Virus record (IMG/VR): IMGVR_UViG_2802429268_000001
Direction: 5' to 3' (one strand)
Origin: an uncultured virus (IMG/VR IMGVR_UViG_2802429268_000001)
Lineage: Duplodnaviria; Heunggongvirae; Uroviricota; Caudoviricetes
DNA length: 64,000 bases
The notes below the pieces were generated by a model that was given only the letters and a program-made list of their open reading frames with translations, was not told where the DNA came from and did no database searches. Position 1 is the stretch's first letter. The number at the start of each line of letters is the position of its first letter. The translations under genes were made by a program, and so were the position numbers. Shown here piece after piece: positions 462 to 58,834 of this stretch.

Positions 462-1599
462 TCCGCTTTTCAGCCCGAGCCTTGGCAATCTGCCGGCTCT
501 TCTCCAGACCATCGCCCCGGCTATAGCGGCGAGTGGTCTTCGTCGTGCTGTGCGTCGCCAGATTGCTGGCGTCTTCCAATGAGCCGGTAGCCTCGACCGT
601 CTCCGTCACAGCACCCGCCCGCGCATCCATCGACCAGACATTCGACGGGACGCCGGCCGCATCGCGCACCTTCCGGAATTTCTCGGTGTAGCGATTCTCC
701 CAATATGGTTTCCCATAGTCCTCATCGATAACCACAGGTCCGATATCCGGTATTCGGTAGGCTTTTAGCGCCTCCTGCACCAACGGCATGACCTTCAAGT
801 CCCGAGACACCTCGGCACCTGTCTTGCTCGTCTTGAGCGTCAGGATCATATCCTTCGATATGTTCTGCCCCGTGAGTCCGCGCCAGCGGAAAGCGCCACC
901 TTCGGGCGGCGGGGCCCACTCCCCAATCACGTCAATGCGTCTCAGGGCTGATTCGAACTTCAGCGCCTCGACAAACCCGATCGACGGGCATTTCAGTTCG
1001 ATGCTTTTCTGCACGATTGCTAGGCACTGGTCATAGGTCATGACGACCGTGCGCGCCGTCGGCTGCTCAAACCGCATGTCGGACAGGATTTCACGCGCCT
1101 GTGCGCAGCCGCTGAGGCGTTCGCCGGCTCCGTAGGAGATGATCAGCCGCAACAGCTTGATCGCGCCTGACGCCCTCCTGTGGCCTTTCTTGCGCCATTT
1201 CCCGAACCAGTCCTTGAAGTCGGACGCCCGAAGCGCGTCTATGCGCCGGGTGCCGACGTTTTTCTCGAGCACGCGCAAGCTGGGTTCATAGTCCCTGATG
1301 CGTGTCGAGTGCTTCACAGAATGAAGCGAGCTCGTCGGATCGTGGCGGTAGCAGTCTATCAGGGCTTTGATGGTGCCGTCGTATTTCGGCGGGGCGTCGA
1401 GATTGCGCAGATCGTCGCGCAACTGATCTGTGAGACGCCGGCACTCCGCGGCGATGGCCTCATCGGCAAGGCCATCAGCAAGACGAATTGTCGTCAGATA
1501 GTCGGGCGCTCCCTTTATCGCCCGCTTCGGATTCCAGTAGTGAACGGTTTTCCCGTCCTTGTTCAGCCGGTACTGGTAACCCGGCCTGTCAGTCCTCAT
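457..1599 (-). CDS. int: Tyrosine recombinase/integrase
   Basis: Adjacent to att; LRRIDV, MDARAG, H-S-T...RRY catalytic-like motifs; start taken at MRTDRPG. Confidence 0.9.
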   Translation of the reverse strand: MRTDRPGYQYRLNKDGKTVHYWNPKRAIKGAPDYLTTIRLADGLADEAIAAECRRLTDQLRDDLRNLDAPPKYDGTIKALIDCYRHDPTSSLHSVKHSTRIRDYEPSLRVLEKNVGTRRIDALRASDFKDWFGKWRKKGHRRASGAIKLLRLIISYGAGERLSGCAQAREILSDMRFEQPTARTVVMTYDQCLAIVQKSIELKCPSIGFVEALKFESALRRIDVIGEWAPPPEGGAFRWRGLTGQNISKDMILTLKTSKTGAEVSRDLKVMPLVQEALKAYRIPDIGPVVIDEDYGKPYWENRYTEKFRKVRDAAGVPSNVWSMDARAGAVTETVEATGSLEDASNLATHSTTKTTRRYSRGDGLEKSRQIAKARAEKRK

Positions 1600-2956: not shown

Positions 2957-3010
2957 GCGTTATCCTTTCCTGTCTTTCGTCGGCGGAAGTGGAGGCGGTG
3001 CGGGTGAGGG

Positions 3011-3193
3011 TCATGGCTTCATGCCACCGCCGCTTCTATGATCTGGAACTGGTCGCCCGAAGTCGCCAGCAGCAATGATGCGGAAGTACAGCAACCTCTC
3101 TTCATCGGAGAGTTCACCGCGCTGCCAGAATTCATGGAAGAACCGGCAGATGGCTTCGCCGTCTTCTTTTGTGAGTTCGAACTTTTCGGTCAT
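3011..3193 (-). CDS. Hypothetical phage protein
   Basis: AAGGAG RBS, ATGA overlap. Confidence 0.6.
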   Translation of the reverse strand: MTEKFELTKEDGEAICRFFHEFWQRGELSDEERLLYFRIIAAGDFGRPVPDHRSGGGMKP

Positions 3194-3369
3194 GGCTGCT
3201 CCTTGGATGCTTTTCGGCGCTCGATCTCAAGGCTCATGCTATAAGCCCACATCGCGAATCCATACCTGATGCCGCTGTCCGGAGGGCCGAAGGGGTATTG
3301 CCGAAAGGCCAGATCGGTCTTCCAAATGCGCAGAGCGATCCACAAAAGCACGTCGGCTATTAGGGTCAT
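3190..3369 (-). CDS. Hypothetical protein (59 aa, MTLIADVLLWIALR...), not in ORF track
   Basis: ATGA overlaps at both ends. Confidence 0.55.
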   Translation of the reverse strand: MTLIADVLLWIALRIWKTDLAFRQYPFGPPDSGIRYGFAMWAYSMSLEIERRKASKEQP

Positions 3370-4490
3370 GACTGCTGATCCTTGGCTGCGAGGGCCATGT
3401 CAACTAGCTGGTTCCACGCGCCCACGAGGATGCGAGCGTGCTGCGGCGAGTTCGGGCTATTGCCGGTGTGCGCAAGGACTGTCCCGGTTCCTTCCAGATA
3501 GACGCCGTGGATGGCCGTCTCATCTGCTTCTGTAGCGAAATGCTCTCGCGTGATGCGCAGCGTGTCTCGGAAATCCTCGACGTGCTTTTCGTCGGCCTGA
3601 TACAGGGACGTTCCCCATTCCACTCGGCCAACAGCGAGAAGCCGCTCGATAATGTCGTCTGGAAGGCGCGCATCCCGGCTTTCTCCCACCGGAGAGGGAG
3701 GGGCGGAGCGATATAGGGCGACATGCTCTCGGCCGGTTGGCTTTCCCCACATGGTCAACGCCAGTTCCGGGTCGTGTTTCGCGGCGGCAAGGTTAGTCTC
3801 TGTCGTCCAAGCCACCGGATCGCTTTCCACCGTAACCGGAGAGGGAGAGGCGGAGAGGGCGGCTCCTGCCTCACATTCGCAGTCACCATCTGAGGCGATT
3901 TTCGCCTTTAGCCATTCGTTATCGAAGCGCAGTTTCATGCGTCCCGCGCGATCCGCCATTATGACGCTTGCGATCGATTTAGGCATATGGTCGAAATGTG
4001 CTTCGCGCCCAAGAATAGCCTTGCATGCTTCGCGGGCCAGTTTCATCACGTCGTCTGGGAATTCACCGTTGTCCGTAACCGGCTCTGCGGGAGGGGTGGA
4101 GGACGCGAGTTCGAACGCCGCCCGAATGATGTAATGGTCCCGGTTCTCGTAGTTCCAGAGGCATGGGGCTTGGTCATCGTTCCAATGCTTCAGAGCAAGC
4201 CGCACAACCTTCTTGCGCGTCTCCGGGTCTTCCCACGCAACCGGCTCCGCCTTCCTCTCGATCGCAGACCGGATACGCGCGTCGAAATCGGATTGGGCTG
4301 CGGAGCGGGCTTCGACCTCAGAACCACATTCGCCTTCTGTGGCGATGGAATTCTCAAGACGCCAAAACCAGCGGCCGTTTGCTTCATGATGGGTCCATAC
4401 GGCATACGCGCCGATGATAGTTACCGCACGGCTTAGGTTTATGCTCCATGGCGGGGTGTGCCATTCAAGCGGCTTTATCTCAATGCTCAT
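3366..4490 (-). CDS. Mosaic hypothetical early protein
   Basis: 374 aa; repeated EPVAW/DPVAW segments typical of phage early mosaic proteins. Confidence 0.75.
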   Translation of the reverse strand: MSIEIKPLEWHTPPWSINLSRAVTIIGAYAVWTHHEANGRWFWRLENSIATEGECGSEVEARSAAQSDFDARIRSAIERKAEPVAWEDPETRKKVVRLALKHWNDDQAPCLWNYENRDHYIIRAAFELASSTPPAEPVTDNGEFPDDVMKLAREACKAILGREAHFDHMPKSIASVIMADRAGRMKLRFDNEWLKAKIASDGDCECEAGAALSASPSPVTVESDPVAWTTETNLAAAKHDPELALTMWGKPTGREHVALYRSAPPSPVGESRDARLPDDIIERLLAVGRVEWGTSLYQADEKHVEDFRDTLRITREHFATEADETAIHGVYLEGTGTVLAHTGNSPNSPQHARILVGAWNQLVDMALAAKDQQS

Positions 4491-22315: not shown

Positions 22316-22731
22316 TCGACCCGCGTGTCAAAGCCCTTTGCGAGGAAGTCGGCATCGAGTGCATCGAGAGCACGGCCTATCCCCGCATCGGGCAGACGCG
22401 CGCGACCAACACCATTCGCCGGATTATCGAGCGATACGGCGAAGAGCATGCCCGCCTCGTGCTGACCACCTTGGCGGAGACGGAAAACAACAAGGCTGCA
22501 GTCGACGAGGTAGGGCTATGGATGGCCTCGGACATGGTGCGGGTATTCCATGCCGAGATAGAGCAGGACGCCTCTCTGTGGCTATCCCTGTGGGACAGGA
22601 TGCCGATCGGATATCTGCAGTACCTCGCCCAGGGGCTGCGCGGGACAGTAAAGCAACGTGACGCCCTATCAGGCATGGTTTATGAACGGCTCCGTCGTGT
22701 CTATGGCGAGCCACAAATCGGAGAGCTTTGA
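22312..22731 (+). CDS. Hypothetical phage protein
   Basis: GTG start, GGAG RBS. Confidence 0.7.
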   Translation: MIDPRVKALCEEVGIECIESTAYPRIGQTRATNTIRRIIERYGEEHARLVLTTLAETENNKAAVDEVGLWMASDMVRVFHAEIEQDASLWLSLWDRMPIGYLQYLAQGLRGTVKQRDALSGMVYERLRRVYGEPQIGEL

Positions 22732-23360
22732 TGACGCCAGAGGAAATCGAAGAGCTTTTCATAAGAGGCGCGGAGATCGACCGGCGCTTGCCCGACACCG
22801 CCCGCCCGGCACGCCTCAAGGCCCAGGCCATGCCCTATGTCCATGACTTCGACGACATGCTCGGATGGGGAACAGACCGTCTCATCGAAGAACGGCAAGC
22901 CTTCTGGGATGCTAGATCGACGAGGATGCAGACCAAGGACGTGGCGATTTGGGAAGAGTGTATGAACCTGATCGTCCTCGTCAGCAGGGAACGCGACCGG
23001 CGATGCCTCTGGGCCTGGTCGCGATCGAAGGCCGGCGGAATGCCTTTCAATCGCTGGTGCAAGGATATAGAACACATCCATCGGAACTACGGGAATGAGT
23101 GCCGGCGGCGTGCATCGACGGAAATAACGGCCCATCTTCTTCGTAACGCATTGATCGATATACACAATTCAGAAAACAGCGCCTTGCAAGACACCCCGGA
23201 AATCGGCGATAAAAGTGCCAACATCGGAGAGACGCGCACCTACTCATGGATGGCGCCGGACGCCTTCACCAGAGAGATGCAGCCAGAGGCGCAAGACTTC
23301 ACTTGGGCCAATCTCCAGAACGAACGCCGCCGCCAGCGCCAAGCGAGGAAGGCGGCATAG
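22731..23360 (+). CDS. Putative late-gene regulator (Q-like position)
   Basis: Last early gene before the late region; function inferred from position only. Confidence 0.5.
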   Translation: MTPEEIEELFIRGAEIDRRLPDTARPARLKAQAMPYVHDFDDMLGWGTDRLIEERQAFWDARSTRMQTKDVAIWEECMNLIVLVSRERDRRCLWAWSRSKAGGMPFNRWCKDIEHIHRNYGNECRRRASTEITAHLLRNALIDIHNSENSALQDTPEIGDKSANIGETRTYSWMAPDAFTREMQPEAQDFTWANLQNERRRQRQARKAA

Positions 23361-23365
23361 AGATC

Positions 23366-23470
23366 GGGGCCTTTGGCAAGCAGCCAGCAGCGGGGTTGAT
23401 CGCCCGACTTTGATCCTCTTTACAGGGGTCATGAGCGAAAAGGCGCGGGCAGAACGCGCGGGTTCCACCA
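23366..23470 (+). ncRNA. tRNA-like RNA with Ala-type acceptor stem and tmRNA-like T-loop
   Basis: GGGGCCT pairs with GGGTTCC-A-CCA (G3:U70, A73); T-arm GCGCG-GGCAGAA-CGCGC; no canonical anticodon arm. Confidence 0.7.
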
Positions 23471-23542
23471 ATTCGCCACATAGGTGGCAGCAAAGGCGTG
23501 TGGTCCACCAGCCCTCCGAACGTGTGGACATCTGGCCCGGCA

Positions 23543-23595
23543 TTTACGCCTGATGAAGCCGAAAGGCAGAAACGGACTTAGGTTCGTCGCGTGGA
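23543..23595 (+). ncRNA. Type I hammerhead ribozyme
   Basis: TTTACGC-CTGATGA-aGCCgaaaGGCa-GAAA-CGGACttagGTTCG-TC-GCGTGGA. Confidence 0.85.
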
Positions 23596-23743
23596 GTAGC
23601 CCCAGCCGGGGAATAACTGGCTACCTAGGGAGGGCGCCAATTCGCGGCAATGCCTCACCGAGATCGGGAAGCGAGTGCCATAAGGGCCTATCACAGCCGG
23701 TTTCCGGCGTGGTGACGGATCATGCCCCGGCTTCCTGAACCCA

Positions 23744-23817
23744 TACCGGTTAGCTTAGTGGTAAAGCGTCGGTCTCCAAAACCGATTACGTGGGTTCGAT
23801 TCCCGCACCGGGTGCCA
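23744..23817 (+). tRNA. Phage tRNA-Trp(CCA)
   Basis: D-arm GCTTAGTGGTAAAGC, anticodon arm TCGGT-CTCCAAA-ACCGA, T-arm GTGGG-TTCGATT-CCCGC, 3' CCA; acceptor stem imperfect. Confidence 0.85.
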
Positions 23818-24009
23818 ACAAGACCCGCTCCGCCTCTCACAGAAGCGCACCGTTGCGGGTTACTCATCAGGACCGCGGCGGAGTGATGGCAAGTAGCCGA
23901 AGCGGCAGATAGCGGACGCCGGAACTGCGCCGGAAGAAGCAAACACCGCACCTCAGAGGGTATCGGTCCCGTAGGCGAATATACCGGACTGCCCGTCCTG
24001 ACAATCACA

Positions 24010-24043
24010 GCCCGTCTCTGTTCGCAGGGGCGGGTTTTCGTTT
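24010..24043 (+). terminator. Rho-independent terminator
   Basis: GCCCGTCTCTG-ttcg-CAGGGGCGGGT then TTTCGTTT. Confidence 0.75.
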
Positions 24044-24072
24044 GAGTGCATCAGTCACGAGGTGGGATCTTT

Positions 24073-24855
24073 ATGCTTCTGCTTGGTGACTGCCTCGACG
24101 TTATACGAGGCATGGATGACGGCTGCATAGACCTGACTGTCACGTCTCCGCCCTACGACAATCTGCGCACCTATAACGGCACGCTGAACGATTGGACGCC
24201 TGAGAAGTGGAAGGCGATCATTGCTGAACTGTACCGCGTCACCAAAGAGGGAGGCGTGGTTGTCTGGGTGGTTGGAGACGCCACGGTCAAGGGAAGCGAG
24301 ACTGGCACCAGCTTTCGTCAGGCGCTCCACGCGACGGAATGCGGGTTCCGGCTGCATGACACGATGATTTATGAGAAGCAGAACCCGGTTCCTTATCATC
24401 ATAACCGTTATCAGCCATGCTTCGAATATATGTTTGTATGGAGCAAGGGAAAGCCAGAATCGTTTAACCCCATCATGGTCCCTTCAAAAGGCCTTGTGGG
24501 CGGCTCAAAGCAGAGGCTAGCCGATGGGAGAAGCGTTGCATTTAATTCAGGCGGGGCGGTTCATCCGCACAAGTACCGAACAAGTATTTGGACTTATTCG
24601 GTAGGGAGCGACAGATCTGGACATCCTGCGGTATTCCCAGAATGCCTTGCGCGCGACCACATTCTAAGCTGGTCGAACGAGGGCGATACGGTCTTCGATC
24701 CGTTCCTTGGATCGGGAACGACCGGGAAGATGGCTCTGGTCCACGGTCGGAAGTTCATCGGCATCGAGCGAGATCCGATCTACTTCGAGATAGCGAAGAA
24801 GCGTATTGCCTCATGCCCAAGCCTCAATGGCGTCCCGGCTGGTTCGGACCAATGA
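24073..24855 (+). CDS. DNA N4/N6 methyltransferase
   Basis: VTSPPY, HPAVFP, DPFLGSGTT. Confidence 0.92.
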   Translation: MLLLGDCLDVIRGMDDGCIDLTVTSPPYDNLRTYNGTLNDWTPEKWKAIIAELYRVTKEGGVVVWVVGDATVKGSETGTSFRQALHATECGFRLHDTMIYEKQNPVPYHHNRYQPCFEYMFVWSKGKPESFNPIMVPSKGLVGGSKQRLADGRSVAFNSGGAVHPHKYRTSIWTYSVGSDRSGHPAVFPECLARDHILSWSNEGDTVFDPFLGSGTTGKMALVHGRKFIGIERDPIYFEIAKKRIASCPSLNGVPAGSDQ

Positions 24856-25260: not shown

Positions 25261-25731
25261 ATGCCCGTCCTAAAGAACGCGCGGCACGAGAAGTTCGCCC
25301 AGGCGCTCGCCAAAGGCAAGACGGCGACGGATGCATATGCGGCCGCCGGGTACAAGGGCGATCGAACCGCCGCATCGCGGTTGTCAACAAATGTCAACAT
25401 CAGTCGACGTGTTGAAGAGATACAGGGCAGGGTGGCCGAGAGGGCCGAATGGACGGCCGCTGACAGGCTTTTAGCCCTCAAGACGATATTCGATGCCGCC
25501 GCAGAGAAAGACGCGCGTGTGGCCATCTCTGCCATTGCTGAAGCGAACAAGATGCAAGGCAGCTACGCGCCGGCCAAACGCGAGATCACGGGCGCCAACG
25601 GCGGCCCGATCTCAACAGTCGATCTGACCAACGTGAGTGCTGATGACCTCGAACGCCTCGAAGCTCTCTTTGGTCCGCTTGCCGGTGGACCCGGCGGCGA
25701 TGATGAGGGCGATACGAGCGGAGAAGGCTAG
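25261..25731 (+). CDS. Terminase small subunit
   Basis: LKNARHEKFAQALAKG...AGY; EITGANGGPI. Confidence 0.9.
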   Translation: MPVLKNARHEKFAQALAKGKTATDAYAAAGYKGDRTAASRLSTNVNISRRVEEIQGRVAERAEWTAADRLLALKTIFDAAAEKDARVAISAIAEANKMQGSYAPAKREITGANGGPISTVDLTNVSADDLERLEALFGPLAGGPGGDDEGDTSGEG

Positions 25732-27184
25732 GCGAGCCGCTGAATCCGAACGCGAGCGTATTGCCAAGGATGCAGAGCGTATCCGGGCGCGGTGCCAGTC
25801 GCTTGCGGGGTTCGTCCGCGAAGCCTGGCATGTGCTCGAGCCGACGCAGAAGCTGGTATGGAACTGGCATCTGGACGCGCTTTGCGCTCACCTCGAGGCG
25901 ATAACCGACGGCCGGATCAATCGGCTGCTGGCAAACGTTCCGCCAGGCTCGTCTAAGTCGGTCATCGTCTCGGTCATGTGGCAGGCATGGGAGTGGGGGC
26001 CGAAGGGTCTTGCTTCCCTCCGCTACCTGACGACGGCGTTCAACGATGGCCCGGTCAAGCGCGATACCCGCAAGTGTCGCGACCTCATCCTGTCGGAGTG
26101 GTATCGCTCGCTCTGGCCGGAAGTGAAGCTGAACCGGACGGGCGAGACATCCTTCGCCAACACATCGACAGGGACGCGGGAAGGCGTTCCCTTCGGCTCC
26201 CTGACGTCACAGCGCGGCGATCGGCTGATCATCGACGACCCGCATTCGACTGAGACCGCAGAGAGCCCGGCAGAGCGCACGGCGACGACCCGCAAGTTTC
26301 GCGAGGGTGCTCAGAACCGCCTGAACGATCAGGAAGCATCCGCCATCGTGGTCATCATGCAGCGCCTGCATGAGGAAGACGTGTCGGGTGTGATCAAGAA
26401 ACTCGGCATGGACTATGTCCACCTGATGCTTCCGATGGAATTCGAGCCGGAGCGCAAGTGCGTTACCTGCATCGGCTTCGAAGATCCGCGGACATATGAC
26501 GGCGAGCTTCTGGACCCTGTCAGATTCCCGCCCGACGTTGTCGCCAACCTAAAGCGCGACATGGGCTCCTATGCATTCGCCGGCCAGTATCAACAGCGGC
26601 CCGTGCCCCGTGAAGGCGGCATGTTCAAGCGCGAATGGTTCGCCGGCAAGATCATCAGCCAGGCGCCGGCCGGAACGCGATGGGTCAGGCATTGGGACTT
26701 AGCCGCGACAAAGAAGGTCACCGCAGCGCGCACCGCCGGCGTGAAGCTCGGTCGCGCGCCTGATGGCTCGTTCATCGTCGGCCACGTCGTCAAGACCCAG
26801 GACGAGGGCAATAAGGTCAGGATGCTGATCAAGGCCACAGCGGAAGTGGATGGCAAGAGCGTCGATATCAGCCTCCCGCAGGATCCAGGACAGGCCGGCA
26901 AGGTGCAGGCGAAAGACATGGTCGCAATGTTGGCGGGCTGGAAGGTGACCGCCGAACCGGAAACGGGCGACAAGATCACGCGAGCCGAACCGTTCTCGAG
27001 CCAGTGCGAGGCGGGAAACGTCTATCTCGTCGCGGGTGAGTGGAATGAGGACTACCTCGACGAGCTCTGCATGTTCCCGGGCGGCTCGTTCAAAGACCAG
27101 GTCGACGGCTCGTCCGGCGCCTTCGGGAAGCTGATAAACGCACCGCGGAGCGGGCACGAAGTCGAGATAACGGGGCTTTACTGA
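25700..27184 (+). CDS. Terminase large subunit
   Basis: NVPPGSSKS, IIDDPH, YQQRP, WDLA, KDQVD. Confidence 0.95.
   Translation: MMRAIRAEKARRAAESERERIAKDAERIRARCQSLAGFVREAWHVLEPTQKLVWNWHLDALCAHLEAITDGRINRLLANVPPGSSKSVIVSVMWQAWEWGPKGLASLRYLTTAFNDGPVKRDTRKCRDLILSEWYRSLWPEVKLNRTGETSFANTSTGTREGVPFGSLTSQRGDRLIIDDPHSTETAESPAERTATTRKFREGAQNRLNDQEASAIVVIMQRLHEEDVSGVIKKLGMDYVHLMLPMEFEPERKCVTCIGFEDPRTYDGELLDPVRFPPDVVANLKRDMGSYAFAGQYQQRPVPREGGMFKREWFAGKIISQAPAGTRWVRHWDLAATKKVTAARTAGVKLGRAPDGSFIVGHVVKTQDEGNKVRMLIKATAEVDGKSVDISLPQDPGQAGKVQAKDMVAMLAGWKVTAEPETGDKITRAEPFSSQCEAGNVYLVAGEWNEDYLDELCMFPGGSFKDQVDGSSGAFGKLINAPRSGHEVEITGLY

Positions 27185-58758: not shown

Positions 58759-58834
<76 letters not shown>

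Follow-up and report, generated by a model that had tools for sequence, protein, structure and literature searches.

The 64,000-nucleotide (nt) stretch of DNA from an uncultured tailed virus of the Caudoviricetes (IMG/VR record IMGVR_UViG_2802429268_000001), referred to here as the window, contains at positions 23361-24045 a gap between genes that is a non-coding RNA island heading the packaging (late) genes of an alphaproteobacterial prophage. Within this island, positions 23495-23638 are one conserved RNA, about 105 nt long without its ribozyme, which folds into a double pseudoknot and is split by a hammerhead. Comparison with relatives from uncultured and cultured phages establishes the fold and its conservation, a family with permuted and ribozyme-free versions, the fixed place of the ribozyme and the genomic settings in which the RNA occurs. 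As to its nature, we lean modestly towards an uncatalogued, widespread phage RNA with an embedded hammerhead, whose nicked, two-piece product would act in trans. An earlier, sequence-only reading had taken the island instead for a cassette of a tRNA mimic, a hammerhead, a tRNA-Trp and further structured RNAs.

The RNA is composed of two homologous units, each about 50 nt long and made up of the segment NCGYKG, a hairpin and a tail. Aligned with one another, the units reach a mean z of 2.4 against shuffles (z>2 in 38 of 61 sequences), and because they resemble each other the fold is pseudo-two-fold: the tail of either unit pairs with the loop of the other unit's hairpin, giving a domain-swapped double pseudoknot. 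The limits of the units were taken from alignment A2, comprising 61 sequences of form A, in which unit 1 precedes unit 2 (in form B the units are swapped). Unit 1 (about 23495-23543, plus strand) runs from GCGUGUG (23496-23502) through helix H1 (23503-08/23524-29) into a tail of AUCUGG (23530-35), CCCGGC (23536-41) and then A; its H1 loop opens with CA and holds the 7-nt 5' strand (23511-17) of the first pseudoknot helix, PK1. Unit 2 (about 23589-23639, plus strand) is laid out as GCGUGGA (23589-95), helix H3 (23596-601/23619-24) and the tail CUAG-GGAGGGC-GCCA; its H3 loop, CCCAGCCGGGGAAUAACU, reads CC-A-GCCGGG-GAAUAACU and contains the 3' strand (23605-10) of the second pseudoknot helix, PK2. 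PK1, of 7 base pairs (bp), joins the H1 loop to the unit 2 tail at 23629-35, and PK2, of 6 bp, joins the unit 1 tail at 23536-41 to the H3 loop.

The fold is carried by covariation across A2. Cells are paired in 86.0% of cases against 65.9% in shuffles, a level that 0 of 500 shuffles reach, and the covariation score of 0.415 compares with 0.121 in shuffles (again 0 of 500) and at most 0.093 for slid partners; the shuffle control overstates significance, the sequences being related, whereas the slid-partner control is free of that weakness. H1 is paired in 99.2% of cells and H3 in 98.9%, each with changes on both sides in 5/6 pairs; the corresponding values are 85.3% and 6/6 for PK1, and 100% and 1/6 for PK2, in which three pairs are invariant. 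Mutual information ranks pairs of H3, H1, PK1 and the hammerhead highest, and a lone tertiary pair, G23500:C23617, shows no exceptions, with GC in 46 sequences and UA in the other 15. A pairing of CUGG with CCAG (23532-35 with 23601-04) is incompatible with PK2; the variable pair 23534:23603 is GC in 48 sequences, AU in two, GU in two and something else in nine, six of these nine being A.A by eye. The two units also agree in the base before CGY (23496 and 23589 in the window; columns 23 and 151 of A2), with 28 GG, 23 CC, 4 UU, 1 AA and 2 unequal cases in 59 sequences for units 1/2, and the same identity was found in 12 of 13 ribozyme-free members when the alignment was read by eye. Hammerhead position 2.1 is complementary to this base, and the hammerhead 2.1 strand could therefore pair with either unit.

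Such features recall ligand-binding RNAs. About 44 columns of A2 are invariant or nearly invariant, many invariant bases are unpaired, and a pseudo-two-fold fold is also that of the cyclic di-AMP (c-di-AMP) riboswitch. Moreover, both NCGY segments have a complement in the 5' strand of hammerhead stem I, with columns 23, 98 and 151 covarying, and therefore a switch would be possible. An RNA that binds one or two small molecules, for example a nucleotide signal, either soaking them up or using them to gate the hammerhead, nevertheless seems decidedly improbable to us: Rfam returns no riboswitch match, the RNA does not lie consistently in 5' untranslated regions, ribozyme-free copies exist, and the neighbouring genes offer no clue to a ligand.

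The ribozyme itself is a type I hammerhead at 23544-23594 (plus strand), in the linker between both units of the conserved RNA. Its predicted cut, 23588|23589, lies exactly where the sequence-only reading had put it, and the hammerhead proposed there is borne out by core and helices, if not by a match to the Rfam model. All 13 core bases (C3 U4 G5 A6 N7 G8 A9 G12 A13 A14 A15.1 U16.1 H17), as defined in the available text of Perreault 2011 (PMC3088659), are present, in CUGAUGA (23550-56), GAA (23569-71), A15.1 (23572), U16.1 (23587) and C17 (23588). Stem I is formed by 23544-49/23589-94, stem II by 23557-68 with a GAAA loop and stem III by 23572-77/23582-87; the 3' strand of stem I (23589-94) doubles as the conserved 5' segment of unit 2. 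In A2 the 1.1/2.1 pair covaries (CG 23, GC 21, AU 4, UG 1), A15.1-U16.1 is conserved in 48/48, proximal stem I is 98.6% paired, the inner helix of stem III is 94.6% paired and 3/4 stem II pairs show double changes, the variable stem ends being poorly aligned by MAFFT. A relative at locus L022 (loci of the family carry L numbers) reaches 28.7 bits with the Rfam hammerhead model against a gathering score of 34. In Mycobacterium phage Gaia the core reads UUGAUAA, consistent with the U3/A8 covariation that natural hammerheads show according to the same available text (PMC3088659).

The pair next to the core varies across the family. Positions 10.1/11.1 are GC in 18 members, AA in 17, UU in seven, GU in two and CA in two, and never A-U; the window copy, itself A.A, aligns column by column with the 18 sequences that have the canonical G-C. 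In those A.A and U.U members that were inspected by eye the core is intact, which argues for selection rather than decay of these hammerheads. Wherever it occurs, the ribozyme sits in the linker between unit 1 and unit 2 or, in form B, at the 5' end, and it always cuts directly 5' of the conserved NCGYGGAG of unit 2. Among individual members, the linker of L342 resembles a decayed hammerhead, and L067 has a tandem pair of hammerhead-containing copies on the minus strand, at 367-537 and 195-361.

The family was assembled by sequence matching. When the gap was compared with phage records by blastn, two stretches only were matched: the tRNA (query 381-458) and 23508-23638 (query 148-278). The latter matches Gaia, directly after a tRNA-Ser in a tRNA cluster, and Enterobacter phage SDFMU_EhYP, where the match falls between the capsid block and tail tubular protein A; a three-way alignment shows the hammerhead followed by a near-invariant GGAGU-stem-CCCAGCYGGGGAAUAACUG-stem-ACCUAGG, whose stem has undergone compensatory changes. 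Searching with the H3-loop 19-mer retrieved 55 viral contig stretches, and looser patterns gave 74 distinct candidate stretches from uncultured and cultured phages, which a script labelled as form A, either with a hammerhead (50) or lacking one (15), or as form B (9); when the stretches were read, three of the 50 were judged to be form B and one of the 15 spurious, so that four labels were mis-sorted or spurious overall. A scan of viral contigs with 14-mers gave mostly chance matches inside genes, and in a scan of genome contigs 4 of 120 rows passed the filter, three of them judged real on reading. The cultured carriers are Gaia, SDFMU_EhYP, Dickeya phage Setonix and Pectobacterium phages Pappous and Taid, and the RNA is annotated in none of their records.

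Form B, found in enterobacterial podophages, has the order hammerhead, unit 2, linker hairpin, unit 1; its members L022, L041 and L058 have three different PK1 sequences, all of them complementary. We attribute the swapped gene order to the internal two-fold symmetry of the RNA. Permutation could also be taken as a sign of catalysis, since self-cleaving ribozymes cluster and occur in permuted forms, and the double pseudoknot might on that account itself be a new ribozyme, self-cleaving or otherwise. The association with a hammerhead and the high conservation combined with pseudoknots would fit, as would the location of self-cleaving ribozymes near particular gene classes, described in the part of Weinberg 2017 (PMC5737381) that was available. 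This reading is very improbable, however: the RNA matches no twister, twister-sister, pistol, hatchet or hepatitis delta virus (HDV) ribozyme model, and a second cutter beside the hammerhead would have no obvious use.

The settings in which the RNA is found are diverse, its carriers including lytic podophages, a mycobacteriophage, large phages with tRNA arrays and temperate alphaproteobacterial phages. Co-oriented tRNAs lie in the 300-400-nt flanks at 15 of 60 loci, and at L027, L030, L054 and L073 the RNA lies between tRNAs. A tRNA-Gly(UCC) stands directly upstream at six loci (L027, L030, L058, L073, L148 and L190), with a tRNA-Trp upstream as well at L148. At L148, L265, L136, L101 and in the window the RNA is found shortly before TerS, TerL or an HNH gene of the packaging type; one family locus adjoins an integrase, and many copies (for example L023, L068, L025, L046 and L064) are directly followed by a terminator of their own. 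A search of 401 genomes of the order for the loop pattern finds it in this genome only, as a single copy, and the RNA is for that reason regarded as phage cargo rather than a host gene. An RtcB gene was found in none of five phage records; a TROVE (Ro60-like) gene was found in two of ten phage records and is absent from this genome, so that there is no general link. One phage of 151 kb (L440; G437:C1:11800-17300) has a TROVE/Ro60-like open reading frame (ORF) at 883-2466, then, at 2995-3063, a tRNA-like gene whose anticodon loop has 4 nt, two sub-threshold matches to YrlA (3125-3234 and 3261-3401) and, after these, the double-pseudoknot RNA on a long closing stem.

In the window, which is part of a 6.09-Mb genome assembly of three contigs, the island is preceded by a 210-amino-acid ORF (22728-23360) and followed by an N6/N4 DNA methylase (24046-24855) and by terminase subunits, one small (25261-25731) and one large (25637-27184); because the methylase and both terminase subunits lie downstream, the island is placed at the head of the prophage packaging genes. 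The sequence-only reading had seen no credible coding sequence here, and this agrees with the four longest ORFs overlapping 23361-24045, which have no match in Pfam (0/4) or PHROG (0/4). The same reading had called the upstream gene the Q-position gene. The gene bears no mark of a Q-type regulator: it has no Pfam match and matches only a PHROG family of unknown function. The strong terminator that had been predicted at the end of the island is real by its features, with a 12-bp stem (24009-24036) followed by a U run (24009-24043 in all, plus strand; fold z -3.3), just 5' of the methylase gene. An alphaproteobacterial small RNA, ar35, is present in a same-genus genome.

Assembled RNA-seq contigs cover the gap region in four runs of one study, each depth being a single mean per contig. 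In run X1 the contig over the gap spans 22580-24414 at a depth of 28.9 against 6.6 for the preceding contig; in X3 it starts at 22693 (42.7 against 3.8) and in X4 at 22742 (46.8 against 7.5), while X2 has one contig across all at a depth of 49.1 and no preceding contig. The contig starts in three of four runs (22580-22742; depth 29-47 against 3.8-7.5 before) lie near the start of the ORF at 22728-23360, and they may mark a promoter for the late region. The contigs span both the hammerhead cut site and the terminator and continue into the late genes. The co-transcribed non-coding cassette that had been envisaged, with processing by self-cleavage and by tRNA enzymes, is plausible, the contigs covering the region.

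These observations bear on a further alternative, namely that the RNA is a cis-acting leader of the late operon, which sets protected 5' or 3' messenger RNA ends or lets RNA polymerase read through a terminator. There is precedent in the put RNA of phage HK022, which makes RNA polymerase read through terminators. The RNA lies upstream of packaging genes in five loci, it ends about 30 nt 5' of the tail tubular A gene in the Enterobacter podophage, and RNA-seq contigs pass through the terminator at 24009-24043. On the other hand, late genes of podophages are normally transcribed by the phage's own polymerase, which speaks against an effect on that of the host; many copies have a terminator of their own immediately downstream (for example L023, L068, L025, L046 and L064), and those between tRNAs (L027, L030, L054 and L073) have no gene nearby. 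A proposal in the available text of Perreault 2011 (PMC3088659), that hammerheads of phages cut long phage transcripts down to messenger RNAs the length of an operon or gene, would also suit a leader. Taken together we consider a leader function unlikely, and it is the terminators and the copies in tRNA arrays that lead us to favour a role in trans.

The reading that we prefer can be set out as a sequence of steps. The precursor would be cut by the hammerhead after C23588, leaving unit 1 with the spent ribozyme ending in a 2',3'-cyclic phosphate and unit 2 starting with a 5'-OH. PK1 and PK2, 13 bp in all, would hold both pieces together as a nicked complex, while RNase P would free the tRNA-Trp at 23743|23744, with trimming at the 3' side too. 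The RNA would then act in trans on a target common to very different hosts, candidates being a small ligand or a conserved factor of RNA handling or translation; a partner common to all hosts is suggested because the RNA spans lytic, temperate, mycobacterial and tRNA-array phages.

Several points count against this reading. Firstly, the closing helix P0, as drawn for the window, is not conserved at the columns concerned, with 32% paired. Secondly, the hammerhead of the window has no Rfam hammerhead match at E<=10, whether 901 nt or 71 nt are submitted, and it has an A23557.A23568 mispair at 10.1/11.1 where the standard criterion asks for a core-adjacent pair; candidates with a mispair beside the core were rejected in Perreault 2011 (PMC3088659), according to the text available. 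Thirdly, 15 of the 74 stretches, by script count, have no hammerhead motif in the linker, and the RNA can therefore do without cutting, common as this is. Fourthly, the RNA-seq evidence consists of contigs from one study that give no ends, strand or local level and bridge the cut site; RNA-seq libraries can contain DNA, and the run table marks the region as not shown transcribed. A role in cis for the late operon, finally, is possible as well, at the low probability given above.

The remaining parts of the island have a different standing. The tRNA-Trp (anticodon CCA) that the sequence-only reading had recognised is confirmed at 23744-23817 (plus strand) by both ARAGORN and Rfam (58 bits, with the gathering score at 29). 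The gene encodes G73 and CCA; the acceptor pairs 1-72 (U.U) and 2-71 (A.G) are non-standard in the Rfam alignment, so that the gene has the cloverleaf of a tRNA but not the seven standard acceptor pairs. It is identical to the host tRNA-Trp (58759-58834) in 56 of 77 aligned columns. That host gene was considered as an attachment site and set aside, the longest exact word at 58759 in common with the first 20 kb being 12 nt.

For the tRNA mimic placed at about 23366-23470 nothing comparable was found. This first module (module 0, plus strand), a minimum-free-energy multi-hairpin closed by 23366-72/23460-66 and ending in ACCA, is unsupported: ARAGORN makes no call, the Rfam tRNA clan gives no match at E<=10, the fold z is -0.5 and no homologue was found. 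Three modules in the window do end in NCCA (23467-70, 23636-39 and 23814-17). In the family, an encoded NCCA is present in only 7/61 members of A2, only 'A-C' after PK1 being common, and an encoded CCA was accordingly dropped as a family feature.

Of the other modules, a spacer hairpin at 23466-23497 (plus strand; fold z -2.3) reads CCAAUUCGCC-ACAUAG-GUGGC-AGCAAAGG, and spacer hairpins of the kind CCAAUUCGCC...GGC..A flank the conserved RNA here and in L036, L042, L056, L060 and L051. Spacer hairpins of the type CCAAUUCGCCC-N4-GGGCAACGA (23466-23497 and 23636-23680 in the window) separate RNA modules in alphaproteobacterial prophage cassettes; the cassettes of these five loci hold other modules, and those of L036, L042, L056 and L060 end in a common terminator, CACCAGCCCCGCC..GGUGGGGCUG. 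Before the tRNA, a spacer-like stretch with RNA occupies 23639-23743 (plus strand; fold z -0.85), and a part shared with same-genus genomes G017, G011 and G002, 23633-23675, recurs there over 31-43 nt at 86-90% identity and reads ..GGCAAUGCCUCA.C.AGAUCGGGAAG... After the tRNA follows a conserved hairpin, 23824-23860 (plus strand; fold z -2.3), with invariant CCGCCU..GAAGCGCACCGUUG; in alignment A3, of five sequences, four of its 15 pairs show compensatory change, and it is also found at L006 (~1500-1545), L004 (~1500-1545), L002 (~1505-1550, minus strand) and L042 (~235-280). In three same-genus chromosomes this hairpin stands head-to-head with a small ORF starting MSELEENRLL. A weak match of 23824-23860 to abiF RNA (RF03085) reaches 22.8 bits against a gathering score of 37 (E 0.2), and four homologous copies in relatives give no abiF match at E<=1. 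The transcribed spacer between this hairpin and the terminator (23861-24008, plus strand) has a fold z of -0.93, and no homologues of it were found. The expectation of further structured RNAs thus holds for the double pseudoknot and the hairpin at 23824-23860, but not for 23639-23743 and 23861-24008, which fold no better than shuffles. Because relatives combine the RNA with other modules, the parts of such cassettes are best seen as shuffled modules. At L051, positions 133-227 on the minus strand, downstream of the RNA, bear a weak resemblance to skipping-rope RNA (28.5 bits, the gathering score being 36.7).

It is against this background that the kit of independent small RNAs, released from one precursor for translation support or counter-defence, has to be judged. 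Its cleavage site and its tRNA are real, the NCCA ends of three modules are in its favour, and a phage tRNA-Trp could back up translation. The two segments that it would release as separate small RNAs, 23471-23588 and 23589-23743, are however divided by a cut that falls inside one conserved RNA; they contain the halves of a single fold, which PK1 (7 bp) and PK2 (6 bp) would keep joined, and they are not two released small RNAs. Its tRNA mimic is unsupported, and its modules are not co-conserved: in the refutation test set beforehand, only the double-pseudoknot RNA and the tRNA matched phages. A kit of this description is quite unlikely.

Comparison with known systems places the double-pseudoknot RNA apart. 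It has no match in Rfam 15 at E<=10 in the window and none at E<=1 in 12 loci of form A, form B and ribozyme-free type, and it went unmatched when Rfam was run, with gathering and with E-value cut-offs, on the window, the loci of 20 relatives and the 71-nt ribozyme stretch. Other Rfam matches, abiF and Tymo_tRNA-like among them, were weak or overlapped the tRNA and were rejected, as was an HDV-like fold, whose helix order does not fit; resemblances to a twister, an RNase P P4-like element and a mimic of the 16S 530 loop were likewise considered and dropped. Full-text searching of the literature yielded no description of the RNA, with the 10,006 unnamed phage RNA candidates of Fremin 2023 (PMC10690425) covered in part: the supplements, three files left out, contain 0 matches for six contig ids, and the RNA may have been predicted there before without a name.

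Likenesses to described RNAs are nonetheless instructive. With the prophage type I hammerheads (RF00163), as far as the available text of Perreault 2011 (PMC3088659) describes them, the ribozyme has in common the 13 core bases, three helices, the GUC site and the prophage setting; it differs in the A.A at 10.1/11.1, in lacking an Rfam match and in being embedded in the linker of another RNA. GOLLD, ROOL, skipping-rope and drum RNAs, going by the available part of Weinberg 2017 (PMC5737381), are alike in their phage or prophage and tRNA-cluster setting, in a highly conserved complex fold and in having their own terminator in many copies, but their size and sequence differ. The likeness to YrlA Y RNAs (available text of Chen 2014, PMC4201824) lies in the TROVE and YrlA neighbours in one 151-kb phage and in the long closing stem of some members, whereas the double-pseudoknot RNA has no T-arm and no YrlA match. 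The GNCGAA motif was not seen by eye in the spacers read, no systematic search having been made for it. Two-piece transfer-messenger RNA (tmRNA) occurs in alphaproteobacteria, and permuted hammerhead and twister types exist; as in those cases, one fold appears here in two gene orders and the mature RNA is probably two paired strands. Unlike two-piece tmRNA, however, the RNA has no tRNA-like domain or tag frame, and ARAGORN calls no tmRNA; unlike in permuted RNAs, the swap exchanges two homologous units. The 3' ends of plant viruses of the turnip yellow mosaic virus (TYMV) type are pseudoknotted and tRNA-like, and in the window too the 3'-terminal strand and a hairpin loop form a 7-bp helix beside a 6-bp hairpin, followed by GCCA. 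This resemblance would appear to be limited, given an encoded NCCA in 7/61 members only and no anticodon-like arm.

What kind of RNA this may be can be stated in more general terms. It is a tentative suggestion, and in our own estimate a doubtful one, that a new functional class of phage RNA occupies 'tRNA slots' and the heads of late operons, matured by a hammerhead into two pieces and charged with a demanding task on a common target. The hosts of that class would, with the same hesitation, be Actinobacteria, Enterobacteria and Alphaproteobacteria, and its tasks could conceivably be the binding of a dimeric RNA-handling or defence protein, mimicry of tRNA ends, the binding of a nucleotide signal, or catalysis. 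If the trans-acting reading is true, the RNA would stand for a new class of orphan phage RNAs, and several of its traits would point to a sophisticated function: some 44 positions that vary little or not at all, the interlocking of its two pseudoknots, a lone tertiary pair covarying with no exceptions, and internal two-fold symmetry. Pairs of host and phage that can be cultured exist, such as Mycobacterium smegmatis with phage Gaia. As the RNA is common to lytic and temperate phages of unrelated hosts, a general target would be expected, and some phage hammerheads would have acquired a concrete job, that of nicking a structured RNA at one set position instead of separating genes.

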